Shown here one piece after another: positions 1,300 through 52,024 of a stretch of DNA of 64,000 bases. The notes under the pieces were generated by a model. That model ran no database searches. It was given only the letters and a program-made list of their open reading frames with translations, and was not told the origin of the DNA. Numbering within the stretch: position 1 is the first letter of the stretch; each line of letters opens with the position of its first letter. This DNA comes from a virus (Duplodnaviria > Caudoviricetes). The stretch is from IMG/VR virus record IMGVR_UViG_3300037067_026422; one strand, written 5' to 3'. A program made the translations under genes and the position numbers.

Positions 1300-1333
1300 T
1301 GCAACATAGCTTTTAAACTTTGCATGGTATGAA
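1300..1333 (+). promoter_or_regulatory. Bipartite motif TGCAACATAG-N11-TGCATGG (candidate phage promoter)
   Basis: Same motif and spacing as the tandem units; upstream of ORF 1392. Confidence 0.6.
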
Positions 1334-1391
1334 TGAAAGAAAGCTCAAATCGAGCTTTTATTATATCAACATAACATAAAAGGAGTCCTTT

Positions 1392-1841
1392 ATGAATAAA
1401 CTTATTAGTTCTGACACGGCGCGTATTCGTGAAAACGATCGTCGCAAGCAATACACTGCATTGGTTGCTGCAATTCGTGATCGTGACGAAAAGGCGGAAA
1501 AGCGTCTTGTCCCCGGTATCAATCTGTTTGCGTCATCCGCCACAGATTACGGATGGAGACTATCGGACGTTCAGACAGTATATAACCGTCTTGATTCCCG
1601 ATTGAACAGTGATCGTGAGACCCTTGCATACAAAAGACAGGAATTCAATACCCCGAACAATCGTACCTGTCGTCGTGATGCCTCTTCCCTGAAATATCTT
1701 CAAGTAACCATTGACCATCTTACTGATGATGTCCGTATCATTAATCGGTTGCATTCCATCTTTGGAGACGCTCTTCGTCGTCGTGGTCAGCTTGTTGGTA
1801 TCGTGACCATTGATCATGTTGAAAGCTATGCTCACGCATAA
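1392..1841 (+). CDS. Hypothetical protein (Arg-rich)
   Basis: AAGGAG RBS; followed by a hairpin and T-rich tract at ~1848-1892. Confidence 0.8.
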   Translation: MNKLISSDTARIRENDRRKQYTALVAAIRDRDEKAEKRLVPGINLFASSATDYGWRLSDVQTVYNRLDSRLNSDRETLAYKRQEFNTPNNRTCRRDASSLKYLQVTIDHLTDDVRIINRLHSIFGDALRRRGQLVGIVTIDHVESYAHA

Positions 1842-2453
1842 GTACAAAAAGGGAAGATGATTGGTTGATGATCACCTTCCCCCTTTTCCTTTCACTATCA
1901 GATAAGGAATAGATATGGCTTTCCAAAAAGGTTTGGATGATATAGACCATCTTCCAGTGTCCCTATCAAGTCATCGTTCTATACTGACCGTGAATGGCGG
2001 AACACTTCCGACCTTGTATAATATGCGTGACCGTCATGATGACCCATACTATCGTTCCCGTTGTGCTCCAAAAAGAACAAAGAAGGATTTCCGAATAAAT
2101 GGACGTCGTGATTACCGTCCTTGGCAAAGGTTGATATATGCCGAATGAAATAGACATAGCACTGGCACAAGCCCGATCAATATTATATGGTACGAATAGA
2201 CCTATGAGTGATTGGGATCCTTTTGACCTTATAGACTGTGATCCCAGTAACCCTTATCCAGAGGATGTTCATCATGAAGTCATCAAAGAAAATTAAACCT
2301 GTAAGGGTAATCATGATCGTGTTAATGATCATTGGTGCCCTGACCGTGATCGATAATTCAATTCGTCTTGTCCGTGAAATAGTTAATACAGTTTCCAATC
2401 ATCACTGGAATCTTGTCGTCGTAAAATAAACTTTCATCAAAGGAGTCTGTTTT

Positions 2454-2642
2454 ATGTTTAAGAAGATCGGTACCTTCATCGTTGTTGTTCTTGTCGTTGT
2501 TGGTGCATTAAACTTTCATGCCCTGAATGCTCCGGCATTCAAAAGTATTACCGAGACCATGACCACCGAAGCCATCGGGGACATCCCCGGTAAAGTATTC
2601 TCGACAGTTACTTCATATCAATGGAAATTCGTTCGCTCATAA
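2454..2642 (+). CDS. Small membrane protein
   Basis: AAGGAG RBS; N-terminal hydrophobic helix; resembles the upstream ORF ending at 2429. Confidence 0.7.
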   Translation: MFKKIGTFIVVVLVVVGALNFHALNAPAFKSITETMTTEAIGDIPGKVFSTVTSYQWKFVRS

Positions 2643-2644
2643 CA

Positions 2645-2703
2645 TGCAGACGGCTCCCCTATTAATAGGGGAGTAATGCAGCAAGCATGTCCGAAGCCAT
2701 GCT
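2645..2703 (+). ncRNA. Twister ribozyme (P5-type permutation) #1
   Basis: UGCA-GA-CGG-[P1 CUCCCCU/AGGGGAG]-U|AA-UGCA-GC-..[P4 AGCAUG-U-CCG-AA-GC-CAUGCU]. T1 = CCG/CGG, T2 = GC/GC. Predicted cleavage U2674|A2675. Confidence 0.85.
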
Positions 2704-2732
2704 ACCCTATAACAATCAACAGGAGTTTTTTT

Positions 2733-3104
2733 ATGAAGATAACAAAAGAAGTTTTGACTGCAATGAAAATGTGTCGCCGGATGGTATATGTAAAGAGAAC
2801 GGATGGGCAAGTTTATCTTATCTGCTCTGAGATACATGTCAAAAATCTTGATGTGAAGATCGAAAAGGAATTTCCTATTGAAGCTTTCGTAACATATGAT
2901 AAGTTTTATGCTACTTGTTACTCCATTACATCAAACATTCAGACAGTTATATCCTCTCTAAAAGTAGAGGATGACATATTCATTAGAGCAGTTGATTGCC
3001 CGATAAATGACAGCCTGATGCTTGTTGAGATTCATTTGATAGTTACTCGTGGAAAAAGGACATTAGATTTTATTTTATCTGTCACCACATCACAATATTT
3101 ATAA
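2733..3104 (+). CDS. Hypothetical protein flanked by two twister ribozymes
   Basis: AGGAG RBS before ATG 2733; the longer start at 2676 lies inside the ribozyme. Confidence 0.75.
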   Translation: MKITKEVLTAMKMCRRMVYVKRTDGQVYLICSEIHVKNLDVKIEKEFPIEAFVTYDKFYATCYSITSNIQTVISSLKVEDDIFIRAVDCPINDSLMLVEIHLIVTRGKRTLDFILSVTTSQYL

Positions 3105-3105
3105 T

Positions 3106-3164
3106 CGCAGAGGACTCCCTATCAAGAAGGGAGTAATGCGGCTGATCGGTTCCAAGCCCGATCA
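3106..3164 (+). ncRNA. Twister ribozyme (P5-type permutation) #2
   Basis: CGCA-GA-GGA-[P1 CUCCCU/AGGGAG]-U|AA-UGCG-GC-[P4 UGAUCGG-U-UCC-AA-GC-CCGAUCA]. P2, P4 and T1 covary against #1. Predicted cleavage U3134|A3135. Confidence 0.9.
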
Positions 3165-3233
3165 TCTAAACTTATAGATAAGGAAGGTGTATCATGTAGC
3201 GGCATTCTATTTTAGAAAAACTACAGTTTATTT

Positions 3234-3304
3234 TGCAGAGTGGGGGGATACTGTCCCCTTAATGCACCATGATCTTCTTCAGATCATGCCGGTCACAAGT
3301 CCGG
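3234..3304 (+). ncRNA. Twister ribozyme (P5-type, with P3 hairpin) #3
   Basis: UGCA-GA-GUG-[P1 GGGGGA/UCCCCU]-U|AA-UGC-AC-[P3 CAUGAUCU/AGAUCAUG]-[P4 CCGG-U-CAC-AA-GU-CCGG]. T1 = CAC/GUG; T2 probably AC/GU. Predicted cleavage U3260|A3261. Confidence 0.8.
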
Positions 3305-3335
3305 ACAAATCACAAATAACATAAGGGGTCCTGCT

Positions 3336-3536
3336 ATGGCACATTTAAAGTATCCAGTTTCTGTTGATGAAGTTTTGGAGTCTGATGAAATCATCGATTA
3401 CGATTCCGAAGCTGTTGATGATATCATGAATGAATCTGCATTCGCACCTGAGTTTTCGAACAATGCTGAACTGTCCACAGAATATGAAATCATGGCACAT
3501 CAGCTCTTCATCCTCATGAGTGAGTCTAACTCATGA
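3336..3536 (+). CDS. Small acidic hypothetical protein
   Basis: RBS present; many Asp/Glu; ATGA overlap with the next ORF. Confidence 0.7.
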   Translation: MAHLKYPVSVDEVLESDEIIDYDSEAVDDIMNESAFAPEFSNNAELSTEYEIMAHQLFILMSESNS

Positions 3537-4064
3537 ACGAGAGGAAAGATTGGAAAGACTGTCTACGTAAATTTGAACAGGAGTGTAATAAAATGGGTAC
3601 ACCAAGCTCTACCAACACCTATCCCGATCGGGATACTACTATCATGCCTGATGAGATACTCAATCTTATCATCCTTCTCAATACCACCAATGATGTTAAT
3701 GAATTCCTGCGCGAGATAAAATGAGATATCCAAACAATACCTCTGTCAGTATCCCTCAGGGGATACCTGATAGTGACATTGAAAAGCTTATGAGTATCAT
3801 AAGTGAACAGGACGGTATACAATATGTAGGGTACACTACACTACGATTGTCCCGCCCTGCTATCTGCTTACATGCCGAACAACATAGTACTCAACGTACC
3901 TTATCCGTTGAGCTGGCAAAAAAAATCTTATCCGAAGGAGTTAATCATGAGTGAAAAAGAAATCCGTCAATGGATGACCACAGGCCTTACTCGTTCAGAA
4001 GCAATCGAAGAAATCAAATACTGGCAGGCTGTTTCGAACATGCTAAAAGTAAGGAGTTAATACT

Positions 4065-4463
4065 ATGAGTCTCACATGGATTAATAAGAATGAAGTCCTA
4101 TATCATCTTGATAATGGAAACACCATTCACTACAAGATAGTGGGTGGTACTGCTTATCACTTTGATACTCCTGAAGCAGTAGTCAACATCATAGAGGATG
4201 CCCTTCGTAATCGTTTTGAAATCCGTCTTCGCTTTGGTTATGGGGACACGAAGGATGGTCGTGACTGGGGTGAACAATGTGACACGACTGGGTATATCGG
4301 ACGGTCGTCTGGTACGATCAAGGTCCCATTGCTTCTAAGCAAAATCACCAGCCATGACGGTGGATCTCTTCTTGATCACTGCATAGTACGAATCGAGAGT
4401 AAACGCCGTAAAGACCACGACTTTACTGAAGTCTACCGACACCCAAAATATCACAAGGAGTAA
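4065..4463 (+). CDS. Conserved phage hypothetical protein
   Basis: AAGGAG RBS; motif YGD..G.DW.E..D..G.IGRS.G..K.PLL recalled from phage hypothetical proteins. Confidence 0.75.
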   Translation: MSLTWINKNEVLYHLDNGNTIHYKIVGGTAYHFDTPEAVVNIIEDALRNRFEIRLRFGYGDTKDGRDWGEQCDTTGYIGRSSGTIKVPLLLSKITSHDGGSLLDHCIVRIESKRRKDHDFTEVYRHPKYHKE

Positions 4464-4466
4464 CCT

Positions 4467-4715
4467 ATGTGTAACTCATGTGGGGTAATGCACATCAATG
4501 GTGTCCTCTGCCATGAGACCGGATGCCCTGACGCATGGAAGGAAGGGACACGTGAATGTAAATGGTGCGGGGGAGAGTTCAAACCTGAAGAAAAGCATCA
4601 GGACTGTTGTGGGCATAGCTGCTCAGTAGCTTACCACAATTTATCCTGTGACTGTAATGAGTGTAACCATGAAGGAGATAACCATGAAGAAGAAAACGTC
4701 GAAGAAGGATCGTAG
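4467..4715 (+). CDS. Cys-rich small (zinc-binding) protein
   Basis: Several CxxC motifs; AAGGAG RBS. Confidence 0.7.
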   Translation: MCNSCGVMHINGVLCHETGCPDAWKEGTRECKWCGGEFKPEEKHQDCCGHSCSVAYHNLSCDCNECNHEGDNHEEENVEEGS

Positions 4716-5015: not shown

Positions 5016-5459
5016 ATGAGTAACTCAATCAGACTTCATCATACACATGGCCTCGCTCCCGTTCTCACCTTCTGTCGTATCTGTGGCAGTGATAGTGAAA
5101 TAGCTTTGCTTGGTGCAGGTGCCGATAAAGTAATGCGCGAAGTACAAAAAGCCATGGGTCAGGAAGAACGGGGCTATAAAGGTACAACCAGTGATCGCAT
5201 CCCCTCTCAAAATCTCTGTGATACCTGTCAGGGAATACTGGATGGTGGTGGTACGATCATCATGGCTGATGATACAAAAGAATATCTGCGCCTTGCAAGT
5301 GAACAAGTAGATTTGTTAATTGGAAAAATCGTGGATGCTAAAGATCGTATACTTGACTTCAATGCTGTGCGTGGCAAAGTACTTACCATACCAAAAGCAT
5401 TCTGGTATGCTGAGGGGGATAATATCCGTCTCAGGGATCCTAAAGAATGGACCATATGA
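5016..5459 (+). CDS. Hypothetical protein with two CxxC motifs
   Basis: CRIC and CDTC; AAGGA RBS before ATG 5016. Confidence 0.75.
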   Translation: MSNSIRLHHTHGLAPVLTFCRICGSDSEIALLGAGADKVMREVQKAMGQEERGYKGTTSDRIPSQNLCDTCQGILDGGGTIIMADDTKEYLRLASEQVDLLIGKIVDAKDRILDFNAVRGKVLTIPKAFWYAEGDNIRLRDPKEWTI

Positions 5460-5685: not shown

Positions 5686-6429
5686 ATGGCTAAAAAGACT
5701 AATGAAGTTACTGCTCGTGAAGTCGATCTTGCTGCAGCAGTCTTGGCGAAATTCGTAGTCAAAGCAGAGTTCGCACATCTCAAGCGCCCCATAGAGATGG
5801 TATTGGGGGGTGCCATGATCCCCTTTCTACAAGCACAGGCAACAGAAAAGAATCCGGAAGTCGATACAGTCATCGAGATGTTCTCGAAAGAGAATATTGA
5901 GAAGATGCTTGATCCGGAAGAAGTAGTCGTAGAAATCCCCGTTGATCGAGTCCTTGAAACCATCAAGCTGATCCGAGGTAAGTTTCGTAGAGTCAAGAAG
6001 GGTCTTAATAAGATCTGTCGTAAGGAAAGAGCTCTTGATTCCTACTGCAGAGATACCATGATCAGATGGTGGAATGTGAATCAGCGCCTGATCCCCGATG
6101 GTGATCCAATATGTGCATCCATAGCACAACAGGTCAATGAAGAGTGCCCCAATGAAGATCCATTATCCAGCATGCAGACTGCAGGGTACTTCTCATATCT
6201 CTGTCGACTGGGTCTTATGGTGGAATCTTCACGTCAGTTATGTATCGAAAGGGCACTCAAGAAAGGAATGATCACCGTTAAACCCGTCTTCTCTTCAAAG
6301 CTCATCAAAGTAATAGAAGAAAACTGGAGACAGGAACGTGCTGATGAGGTACAGCGGGAAAAAGATCATAAGATATTAATCAAACAACGTGAGCAGGGAG
6401 ATTTTTCCCCTATCATAGCCGAAGAATAA
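5686..6429 (+). CDS. Hypothetical protein
   Basis: 247 aa; AAGGAG RBS; downstream hairpin at ~6441-6465. Confidence 0.85.
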   Translation: MAKKTNEVTAREVDLAAAVLAKFVVKAEFAHLKRPIEMVLGGAMIPFLQAQATEKNPEVDTVIEMFSKENIEKMLDPEEVVVEIPVDRVLETIKLIRGKFRRVKKGLNKICRKERALDSYCRDTMIRWWNVNQRLIPDGDPICASIAQQVNEECPNEDPLSSMQTAGYFSYLCRLGLMVESSRQLCIERALKKGMITVKPVFSSKLIKVIEENWRQERADEVQREKDHKILIKQREQGDFSPIIAEE

Positions 6430-46987: not shown

Positions 46988-47314
46988 ATGAAGATACTGG
47001 AGATTATTATCGCTACAATTGTTTTGGTAGCAACTACTCTGATGATTTGCAAAATGAATCGGGGGGCATCCTTGATGTCTCAGGATGCCCGGGCTAACGA
47101 TGCTGCGTATATAGTCGCGGAAAAGAAATTCACTGAACTATCTATCCAGGTCTTTCCAGTTGCTATCGGGGTGGATACAGCATTTGTTAATGAAGCCCCA
47201 TATATTCGTAACTGGGCTATATCTGACACAGGCCATATCCGTAGAGCAGTTGTTACGGTGACCTGGATGTCACTGGGGGGTAGTAGAAGTACAAATTTTT
47301 CAAGGGGTCTGTAA
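46988..47314 (+). CDS. PilV-like minor pilin without a leader
   Basis: MKILE-IIIATIVLV has Glu at +5; C-terminal R.W.I...VVTVTW typical of minor pilins. Confidence 0.65.
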   Translation: MKILEIIIATIVLVATTLMICKMNRGASLMSQDARANDAAYIVAEKKFTELSIQVFPVAIGVDTAFVNEAPYIRNWAISDTGHIRRAVVTVTWMSLGGSRSTNFSRGL

Positions 47315-48426
47315 TGAGAAATCAGAAGGGTGTAACTTTAGTAGAGCTATTAGTTTATATGGCTCTGTTTGGTATCGTGGCGCTCATCATCCAAAGTCAG
47401 TACTCGAAAATGGCAAGTATTATCCACAGAGAAAAACAAATCACTGGTATCCAAATGGATTCAAGGAGTATCCTGTCTATCCTCCTCAAGGAAATCCAGA
47501 ATACTGGATGTAAAATTTATTTTACAGATGCCTCTGATGGTTTCAATAAAAATATCGATGCACTATCCTTCCAGAATGATTCATCTTCTTTTGTCTGCGA
47601 AGAAGGTAATCCAAGTGATACCCTAAAAATTTATAAGACTATACTTACAAGTACCGGAGGTTACGAAAGATCCGACTCTGTTAAATTTTATCTTACTGGA
47701 GACAGCTTAATTAAGGAACGGGATAATAAAAAAGCTAACATCAGAGGAGGTGTTTATGCCCTTCAGTTTCAGTATGGTGTAACTGCCAGTGATTCAATGA
47801 TCTATGACCTGTATCCTTTACCAAGTCCAGCAAACTGGATGGTATCCAATATGGAGGGTACTGCTCCTACTGTTCAGGCTCAGGGTAATTTGACTCAGGT
47901 AGCTTTTACCGGAGCTGCAACAGGTAGGGTTTATTATCTCAACTCTTTTTCTATTGCTAAGGACCAACAACTTAAAATATCCCTCTGGTTATCCCCCAAT
48001 ACATCCTTTGTAAATAATTTTGATTCTGCATACTGTTCGGTTTATGACGGGGATGTCAGAGTTGGATATGATAAGTTCATCCCAAATGGTTTAAAAACGG
48101 ATGTGATAGTTAGTGTTCCACAAAAAAGTGGGCTTAAAATAGCTATAGATTATTGGGTGAAAGGTTCCGGGGCTATTCTTATAAACGGTGCTGAGATTCG
48201 CAGATTCAATGATGGTGAATATACTTGGCTTGATAATCCCCCGCAAAATAAAAGGAAACTGGTTAAAGCAATCAAAGTCAATATCCTCACCCGAAGCAAA
48301 GCAAATGCCGGAGTTATAGTTGATACCCCTGTAACAGTTGCCAATATTTCTTACCCGAGATCTGGTAAGTTTCTTTGGCGTTCTTTCGAAGAAGTCATCT
48401 TCACACCAAACAATGGAATTTTTTAA
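47314..48426 (+). CDS. PilW-like prepilin (N-terminal cleavage/methylation domain)
   Basis: MRNQKG|VTLVELLVYMALFGIVALII; LQFQYG; C-terminal V.A.KVNILTR. Confidence 0.85.
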   Translation: MRNQKGVTLVELLVYMALFGIVALIIQSQYSKMASIIHREKQITGIQMDSRSILSILLKEIQNTGCKIYFTDASDGFNKNIDALSFQNDSSSFVCEEGNPSDTLKIYKTILTSTGGYERSDSVKFYLTGDSLIKERDNKKANIRGGVYALQFQYGVTASDSMIYDLYPLPSPANWMVSNMEGTAPTVQAQGNLTQVAFTGAATGRVYYLNSFSIAKDQQLKISLWLSPNTSFVNNFDSAYCSVYDGDVRVGYDKFIPNGLKTDVIVSVPQKSGLKIAIDYWVKGSGAILINGAEIRRFNDGEYTWLDNPPQNKRKLVKAIKVNILTRSKANAGVIVDTPVTVANISYPRSGKFLWRSFEEVIFTPNNGIF

Positions 48427-50670: not shown

Positions 50671-50800
50671 CGATACCCCACTACTTAATAAAGTTAAATT
50701 AAGACTCCTTATTTTATACTTGATTATCTCATTACAAAAAAGTATATTTTATAGGGTCACTCATGAATATGCTATTAACGCATTATTAGGAGGAAGCACT

Positions 50801-52024
50801 ATGCTTAAACTTCAATTTGGTAGAAACGTGCTCAGGAAGCTCGTTGATTTTGCTACCGGTACCCATAGCTGGAGTGCCCCTGATGTGTCCATGCTTTCCG
50901 ATCCCTCCAAAGAGGAATCGGATCTGGAAGCCAGCTATGAACCTCCTATCAATCCTGCTGATCTTGAACGAGTGATATCCCGATATGGTATCCTTGGAAA
51001 GTTTAAAGATTATCATATTGGTTCAGCGGTTACTACCTATGAGGTAAGTGTACCAGTTGGTACCAAGCTCAATAGCTTTATGCGATGTCGGGATGATATT
51101 GCAAGAGATCTTGGTACTCCTTCTCTTCGCATCATTCAGTCGGTGAACAACTCTTCATTAGTCGGATTCGAGGTGGAGAACAAAGATCGATACAATGTTT
51201 ATTTCAAAAATATGTTCCTTAATATCCCCACAGGGCTCAAGCTCCCAGTTATCCTTGGAGAAGATACCTACGGAAATAAAACCTATGTTGATCTTACTAC
51301 AATGCCTCATCTGCTTGTAGCTGGTCGTACTGGTTCAGGTAAATCTGTGTTCATCAATACACTAATCACAACACTGATCTGCAAGTATACCCCCGAACAG
51401 CTCCAGCTGATCATGGTGGATCCTAAGCAGGTAGAGTTTGCAGCATATGAAAATCTTCCTCATTTATTCAGTAAAGACGGCAACACTCTTAATATTGCTT
51501 CAGATGTGTCGGAAGCCCGAGAGTTAGTCTCTACTGCAGTAGAGGAAATGGAACGTAGGTTCGATCTTATGAAGGAAGTCAAGGCTAAGAAGCTTGATGA
51601 TTATAATGACAGGGTTGCTGAAAAATTGCCCTATATCGTTTTCATCATTGATGAGTTCGCGGACCTGATGCTTATGGGTTCTTCTGCAGAACGAAAAGAA
51701 GTAGAAAATAATATCGTTCGCATAGCTCAAAAAGCAAGAGCGGTAGGTATCCATCTTGTATTATCTACGCAGAAACCCATGGCACAAATCATGACAACAC
51801 TCATCAAAGCCAATATGCCAGCAAGGATTTCCTTTAGCGTATCAAGTCTGAGTGACTCAAGGGTGATACTTGATGAAGGCGGAGCAGAAGCATTAACCGG
51901 TAATGGAGATTTGCTGTTCAGAGACCCCCTCGCCAAAAGCGAGTACACCCGGATCAAACGAGTCCAGGCACCATGGATCTCGGATGAAGATATCGAAAGT
52001 CTTATAAACCAAGGGAGTAACTAA
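50801..52024 (+). CDS. ftsK: FtsK/SpoIIIE-family DNA translocase (motor domain only)
   Basis: MPHLLVAGRTGSGKS, DPKQVE, EMERR, IIDEFADL, ARAVGIHL.L.TQ.P, GAE.L.G.GD.L; AGGAGG RBS; promoter at 50720-50748. Confidence 0.92.
   Translation: MLKLQFGRNVLRKLVDFATGTHSWSAPDVSMLSDPSKEESDLEASYEPPINPADLERVISRYGILGKFKDYHIGSAVTTYEVSVPVGTKLNSFMRCRDDIARDLGTPSLRIIQSVNNSSLVGFEVENKDRYNVYFKNMFLNIPTGLKLPVILGEDTYGNKTYVDLTTMPHLLVAGRTGSGKSVFINTLITTLICKYTPEQLQLIMVDPKQVEFAAYENLPHLFSKDGNTLNIASDVSEARELVSTAVEEMERRFDLMKEVKAKKLDDYNDRVAEKLPYIVFIIDEFADLMLMGSSAERKEVENNIVRIAQKARAVGIHLVLSTQKPMAQIMTTLIKANMPARISFSVSSLSDSRVILDEGGAEALTGNGDLLFRDPLAKSEYTRIKRVQAPWISDEDIESLINQGSN

Follow-up and report, generated by a model that had tools for sequence, protein, structure and literature searches.

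The locus lies near the left end of the genome of an uncultured phage of about 239 kb, in a run of small genes; all the ORFs around it are on the + strand. Positions given here are those of the window, the whole 64,000-nt stretch of this DNA that was analysed. Between two small genes and around a third, the window carries three self-cleaving ribozymes of the twister class, arranged as follows:

2454..2642, + strand: ORF of 62 aa with a hydrophobic N-terminus, ending in the TAA at 2640-2642
2645-2701, + strand: twister #1, type P5 (RF02684, 54.4 bits, E 1.5e-08)
2702..2732, + strand: 31-nt G-poor leader, UAUAACAAU, with the SD AGGAG at 2721-2725
2733..3104, + strand: ORF of 123 aa, the cargo between #1 and #2 (ORF list, gene call)
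3106-3161, + strand: twister #2, type P5 (RF02684, 49.9 bits, E 2.2e-07)
3162..3233, + strand: 72-nt spacer with SD-like AAGGAAGG (3180-3187) and a bare ATG-TAG (3194-3199)
3234-3304, + strand: twister #3, type P5, with P3 (RF02684, 46.5 bits, E 1.6e-06)
3305..3335, + strand: 31-nt leader, AAAUCACAAAUAACAU, with the SD AAGGGG at 3323-3328
3336..3536, + strand: acidic ORF of 66 aa, the first gene past #3 (ORF list, gene call)

Phage-type genes elsewhere in the window encode an FtsK-like ATPase (FtsK/SpoIIIE-type, 50720-52024), a MoxR-type ATPase and its VWA-domain partner, an ATP-dependent DNA ligase and a pilin-like protein (47314-48426) whose N-terminus bears the methylation motif of type IV pilins. 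Megablast of 12 kb against GenBank phages gave no match, nor did a search of IMG/VR with ORF 5686-6429. Only two contigs on record encode the product of ORF 2733-3104: one of 238,919 bp and, independently, an 18.5-kb Logan contig, on which the gene caller called the same ORFs and left 3105-3335 empty. Upstream of the operon, about 1 kb (1-1046) contains no ORF longer than 63 aa; L002 and L006, two of the related phages described below, have a comparable ORF-poor gap of 1.2-1.4 kb, bounded on one side by the first small gene and on the other by a large gene of opposite orientation.

To identify the elements, the whole 64 kb was searched with cmscan against Rfam 15 at gathering thresholds, the cut-off for Twister-P5 (RF02684) being 37.6 bits. 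Three Twister-P5 matches were obtained, all on the + strand, all above the cut-off and all spanning model positions 1-58 of 58. No other Rfam family was found in the window at these thresholds, and a looser search (E<=1) gave no hammerhead, pistol, hatchet or additional twister. The original prediction had placed three twisters within 660 bp and had named a covariance-model search as one check; the matches fall at the positions it gave.

Reading the sequence and parsing it by script gave the same order of parts in all three elements, P2'-GA-T1'-P1-U/AA-P2-T2-[P3]-P4 (the slash marks the cut), in the type-P5 permutation, with P1 closed by a loop and the chain ends on the P5 side. The parts of each are:

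Twister #1, + strand: P2' 2645-2648; T1' CGG 2651-2653; P1, a hairpin of 8 bp; P2 2677-2680; P4, a hairpin whose loop holds T1 CCG and T2' GC; P2'/P2 UGCA/UGCA; T1'/T1 CGG/CCG; predicted cut between U2674 and A2675
Twister #2, + strand: P2'/P2 CGCA/UGCG; T1'/T1 GGA/UCC; P1 of 6 bp; predicted cut between U3134 and A3135
Twister #3, + strand: P2'/P2 UGCA/UGCA; T1'/T1 GUG/CAC; P1 of 6 bp; optional P3 hairpin of 7 bp at 3269-3287; predicted cut between U3260 and A3261

All P1, P2 and P4 pairs are Watson-Crick in the three elements, and minimum-free-energy folds recover P2, P1 and P4, plus P3 in #3 (z -3.28 for the fold of #1). The three T1 sequences are mutually orthogonal. Cleavage at the predicted positions would release RNAs of 460 nt (2675-3134) and 126 nt (3135-3260). 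In its consensus order and permutation, its compensatory P2 and T1 changes with differing P1 and P4 stems, its cut sites and its product sizes, the original prediction agrees with this parse throughout.

Two departures from the family are seen. The flanks of the elements are unpaired and therefore form no P5 stem in #1, #2 or #3; in type-P5 twisters P1, P2 and P4 are essential, and P3 and P5 are optional (Roth et al. 2014, as reviewed in PMC5408937). The T2 pseudoknot is GC/GC in #1 and #2, and in #3 sets CC against GU, so that one of two pairs forms in the consensus register; shifted by one register (AC with GU) it would pair, at the cost of one P2 pair. The T2' GU that replaces the consensus GC, and with it a non-consensus T2, recurs in the orthologues of #3 in two related phages (L002b and L102), and the activity of #3 and these orthologues is for this reason less certain. 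In permutation, core letters (among them the A 3' of the scissile bond and the AAG of the P4 loop), P1/P2/P4 stems, T1 and a predicted cut 5' of the conserved A, the window elements are like Twister-P5.

Relatives were found through ORF 4065-4463, a member of a widespread family, by using the genomic contexts of its nearest members. The order of small genes around it is the same by BLAST in the closest of these contexts as in the window: the homologues of ORFs 1047, 1392, 1915, 2238, 2454, 3533, 3721 and 4065 keep this order in L002, L006 and L007, and L005 has a part of the set. The 62-aa ORF before #1 is 57% identical to a 62-aa ORF at L002:4021-4209, and there too a twister follows, 1 nt after the ORF. 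Type-P5 twisters occupy the same operon gap in four related lineages (L002, L006/L007/L008, L102 and L104), and no Rfam twister was found at the matching place in the relatives L005 and L101. Their positions, and the ORFs enclosed by the outermost twisters, are:

Window: twisters #1 to #3; ORF of 123 aa
L002: twisters at 4211-4267 and 4566-4636; ORF of 61 aa
L006 (also L007, L008): twisters at 4549-4601 and 5262-5316; ORFs of 128 and 70 aa (L006)
L104: twisters at 71-123 and 1785-1837; ORFs of 142 and 315 aa
L102: twister at 2297-2370; no ORF

The orthologues of twister #3, L002:4566-4636 (L002b) and L102:2297-2370, have the same core and different P1 and P3 stems. Covariation was counted on an alignment (A2) of the five elements without P3, from three phages, because a MAFFT alignment of all seven misaligned those bearing P3; the latter were parsed by script instead. 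All 95 pair cells in A2 (19 modelled pairs in five elements) hold standard pairs. Both sides have changed in 9 of the 19 pairs, among them all three T1 pairs and others in P1, P2 and P4. None of 500 shuffles reached the observed covariation, and sliding the partners dropped pairing to 30-46%. The invariant columns, GCAGA, AAUGC, GC, GU and AGCC, contain the conserved core letters. The nucleotide 5' of the cut is C in L002a and U in the window elements, at a position described as non-conserved (PMC5408937). In the second twister of L104, parsing showed a weakened T1. Together, the covariance model and covariation confirm at the level of sequence that the three elements are genuine twisters, and compensated conservation across five lineages argues for a function.

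P1 is not conserved in sequence in the family consensus, whereas in 7 of the 10 twisters of this clade its outer four pairs are CUCC/GGAG (window 2655-2658/2670-2673 and 3115-3118/3130-3133, with equivalents in L002a, L006a/b and L104a/b). One strand of these pairs is SD-like and the other anti-SD-like.

Beyond these lineages, no Twister-P5 was found in a distant 467-kb relative reached through its AAA ATPase, or in 16 phage records of IMG/VR that encode a homologue of ORF 4065-4463. A DNA pattern for the twister subtype returned 92 IMG/VR stretches, mostly a single repeated 49-nt stretch of proviruses of about 40 kb that is not an Rfam twister and was discarded as an artefact; the true Twister-P5 elements among the 92 are in L011, L013, L014, L016, L058 and L077 only. 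L016 and L058, which are unrelated IMG/VR phages of 144-150 kb, carry a pistol and a Twister-P5 a few kb apart (pistol/Twister-P5 regions L016:2898-2964 and L058:5435-5505 with L016:7511-7589 and L058:1048-1125), a further example of a phage region that combines ribozyme classes.

A second conserved RNA, of 73-79 nt, lies at the place equivalent to that of the twisters in L005 and L101, and also upstream of the homologue of ORF 1392 in L002, L005, L101, L102 and L006; inserts in the middle stem lengthen it in L101 and L006. Copies are found at:

L005: 1263-1341 and 2109-2187
L101: 594-735 and 1622-1700
L102: 551-623
L002: 2570-2642
L006: ~3050-3255

Its 5' hairpin has a loop, UGACUCCAY, that can pair with a downstream GGAGYC (a GACUCC/GGAGUC pseudoknot). 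An A-rich linker follows, then a variable hairpin with two-sided changes in 6 of its 7 pairs, then GUU and a last hairpin, CCGG-UAAUCAAU-CCGG, which is invariant in five aligned copies and has a different loop in L006. In most copies a leader of the twister type comes next. No Rfam family matched this RNA at E<=1. On comparison with true pistols its first half resembles the pistol ribozyme, with the P2 strands arranged differently. From its sequence it is a candidate for a new self-cleaving variant or for a leader pseudoknot. In the window, the region before ORF 1392 (1296-1391) retains only a remnant, consisting of AUGAAAGAAA, a hairpin AAAGCUC/GAGCUUU and the leader AUCAACAUAACAU with an SD; it lacks both the first hairpin and the one with CCGG.

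The placement of the twisters relative to genes is regular. In the ten elements, the twister end is separated from the following ATG by 31, 32, 31, 32, 35, 33, 39, 37, 37 and 32 nt, and six of the ten begin 1-2 nt past a stop codon. As the original prediction had stated for #1 and #2, these start 2 nt and 1 nt past their stops (TAA 2640-2642 and TAA 3102-3104). Where a twister starts just past a stop codon, the upstream product of cleavage would keep its stop codon and end about 30 nt further on, in the P1 hairpin. The leaders in the window and the relatives are G-poor, have a common motif near AUCAnAUAACAU and end in an SD; in the predicted fold of the 3' cleavage product of #1, leader and SD are unpaired. 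The leader motif ATAACAT is not enriched across the window as a whole, which ruled it out as a general gene-start signal.

Behind twister #2, at the usual distance, come the SD-like AAGGAAGG and an ATG that runs directly into TAG. The spacer stretch GTGTATCATGTAGC (3187-3200) is identical letter for letter in L102, and the counterpart in L002 is GTGTATCATG followed by four more codons. Because it is kept in L102 and L002, we take the ATG-TAG piece as part of a conserved element 5' of the P3-bearing twister and not as a lost gene of its own. The piece GTGTATCATG(TAG) is kept upstream of the P3-bearing twister at window 3187-3200, L102 ~2256-2269 and L002 ~4520-4535. It closes a mini-ORF of 9 or 12 codons in L102 and L002 (MQRKRECIM, MRRKCRCIMNTY), of which the window keeps only ATG-TAG. 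AUCAUG could compete with a P3 strand in the window and L102, and not in L002. Against shuffles the fold of the 72-nt spacer is not significant (z -0.31), which ruled out the 126-nt product as a separate structured small RNA: it consists of two ribozyme halves and an unstructured spacer.

The genes held between the ribozymes differ from phage to phage. No BLAST similarity was detected between the cargo ORFs of different phages, and gene order on either side is conserved. Behind the last twister, L002, L102, L006 and L104 have an ORF of one family; the 66-aa ORF of the window has no detectable relation to that family and no Pfam or PHROG match. ORF 2733-3104 likewise has no Pfam or PHROG match and no relatives in IMG/VR, matches only itself among 5.8 billion clusters, and has Atlas structure matches all with TM <0.5. 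In L104 and L006 the last ~14 codons before the second twister are common to both, though the ORFs themselves differ.

We consider it probable, on the strength of these sequence features, that the twisters are active self-cleaving ribozymes that cut one rightward polycistronic message without the help of a protein, the products most likely being linear. Scans for consensus signals, beside which a phage may use others, gave no sigma-70-like promoter on the + strand at 1320-3772 and no terminator-like site on it before 4950, which fits one transcript running across the ribozymes. Each ribozyme would fold and cut during transcription. The upstream piece would retain its stop codon, its last part being the GC-rich P1 hairpin and its terminus a 2',3'-cyclic phosphate; the downstream piece would begin with a 5'-OH, followed by the short P4 hairpin, the unstructured G-poor leader of about 31 nt, and then the SD and ATG. 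Ribozyme and leader together would therefore form a protein-independent processing site and insulator, giving each downstream gene an identical, defined 5' end whatever the sequence upstream. The stretch from the first to the last ribozyme would be a spot of gene turnover, with the ribozymes retained and the intervening genes changing from phage to phage. While we infer that cleavage takes place in vivo, the direction of its effect on expression may go either way: what a 5'-OH end does to an RNA varies with the host, destabilisation included, and the products may or may not be the stable units that the original prediction supposed. In Bacillus, RNase J1 degrades the glmS ribozyme product that carries a 5'-OH, and by analogy cutting could destabilise the message here rather than stabilise it.

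The proposed function has parallels in the RNase III sites of T7 early mRNA and in the RiboJ insulator, where a cut between cistrons leaves a 3' hairpin upstream and a defined 5' end downstream. The twister cut would leave the same two features, but a twister needs no host enzyme and its ends are a 5'-OH and a 2',3'-cyclic phosphate, not a 5'-phosphate and a 3'-OH. Similar in arrangement are the clustered hammerheads of prophages (PMC3088659), where several co-oriented self-cleaving ribozymes likewise bracket one or a few small genes of varying identity; co-oriented twisters flank variable genes, with three of them within 660 nt in the window and two each in L002, L006 and L104. That system differs in being of another ribozyme class and in prophages of cultured bacteria, whereas the present elements are in an uncultured phage and are followed by a conserved leader of fixed length. 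For the hammerheads, processing of a long phage transcript into gene-length mRNAs was proposed in 2011 and circular products were considered (PMC3088659); a 2019 review made the same proposal for hammerhead and twister and noted the link with phage genes (PMC6765202).

A different emphasis would make the elements boundaries of cassettes, with ribozyme and leader serving as a portable homology or expression adaptor through which accessory genes are swapped. The unrelated genes between first and last twister in otherwise syntenic phages suit this reading, as do the extra unit of the window, where #2 precedes only ATG-TAG, and the ~14 terminal codons common to L104 and L006 before the second twister of otherwise different ORFs. 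However, elements of 57 nt at ~70-80% identity are short substrates for homologous recombination, and a fast turnover of accessory genes for other reasons also predicts variable cargo. We regard this as a minority possibility; it is compatible with transcript cutting, in that cutting the RNA would be the job of the adaptor and modular gene exchange its evolutionary role.

The elements might instead be decaying or neutral relics, ribozyme sequences that the phage has inherited but has no further use for. The start-stop behind #2, the weakened T1 in the second twister of L104 and the twister-free L005 and L101 could be read in this way, but the matches are full-length with every core position kept, compensatory changes are found in P1, P2, P4 and T1 across five lineages, and the spacing to the next start codon is fixed, so that we think decay quite unlikely.

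The original prediction had offered protein-independent processing and, beyond it, a natural circular mRNA. The first of these best matches the anatomy and the literature; the second finds no support. In the engineered Tornado system two flanking twisters give RNA ends compatible with RtcB, an added stem holds the ends together, and circularisation depends on RtcB. The 460-nt RNA (2675-3134) contains an SD and a whole ORF and could be thought to be joined by an RtcB-type ligase of host or phage, or by the reverse twister reaction, and translated as a circle; twister ends, 5'-OH and 2',3'-cyclic phosphate, are those that RtcB joins (PMC8782182). In L006 and L104 the flanking twisters moreover have the same P2 and T1, and the two ends of an excised RNA could come together there as a twister core. 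Unlike in Tornado, the ends in the window do not match each other as ribozyme halves: between the 3' half of #1 and the 5' half of #2, pairs form at three of four P2 and one of three T1 positions, and no twister core can be rebuilt from the two ends of the 460-nt RNA because the T1 pseudoknots are mutually incompatible. For the 126-nt RNA, the 3' half of #2 with the 5' half of #3 gives three P2 pairs plus a wobble and one T1 pair plus a wobble. The end compatibility is not conserved across the clade. No RtcB was found among the ORFs of at least 269 aa in the window, which covers 64 kb of the genome of about 239 kb, or in four other Twister-P5 phage records, whereas 10 of 14 control genomes gave an RtcB match, and for the clustered phage hammerheads Perreault et al. 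sought circular or spliced RNAs and detected none (PMC3088659). Circularisation of the 460-nt RNA accordingly seems very improbable. The ends in the window cannot template their own ligation, and joining by an enzyme is conceivable at a very low probability; a translatable circle closed by the RtcB of the host or by heal-and-seal ligases of the phage would be a natural phage circular mRNA, and we give that outcome very little credence.

Cutting into linear units is thus the reading we prefer. The arrangement is already known in phages and the kind of element is not new; what this locus adds is a set of orthogonal pseudoknots, a fixed leader with each ribozyme, and a conserved slot in which the genes change. 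The roles of self-cleaving ribozymes in bacteria and phages are still largely unknown (PMC6765202), and with three orthogonal twisters in 660 nt, leaders of fixed length and a slot kept in four related lineages, the operon would provide a compact natural test case.
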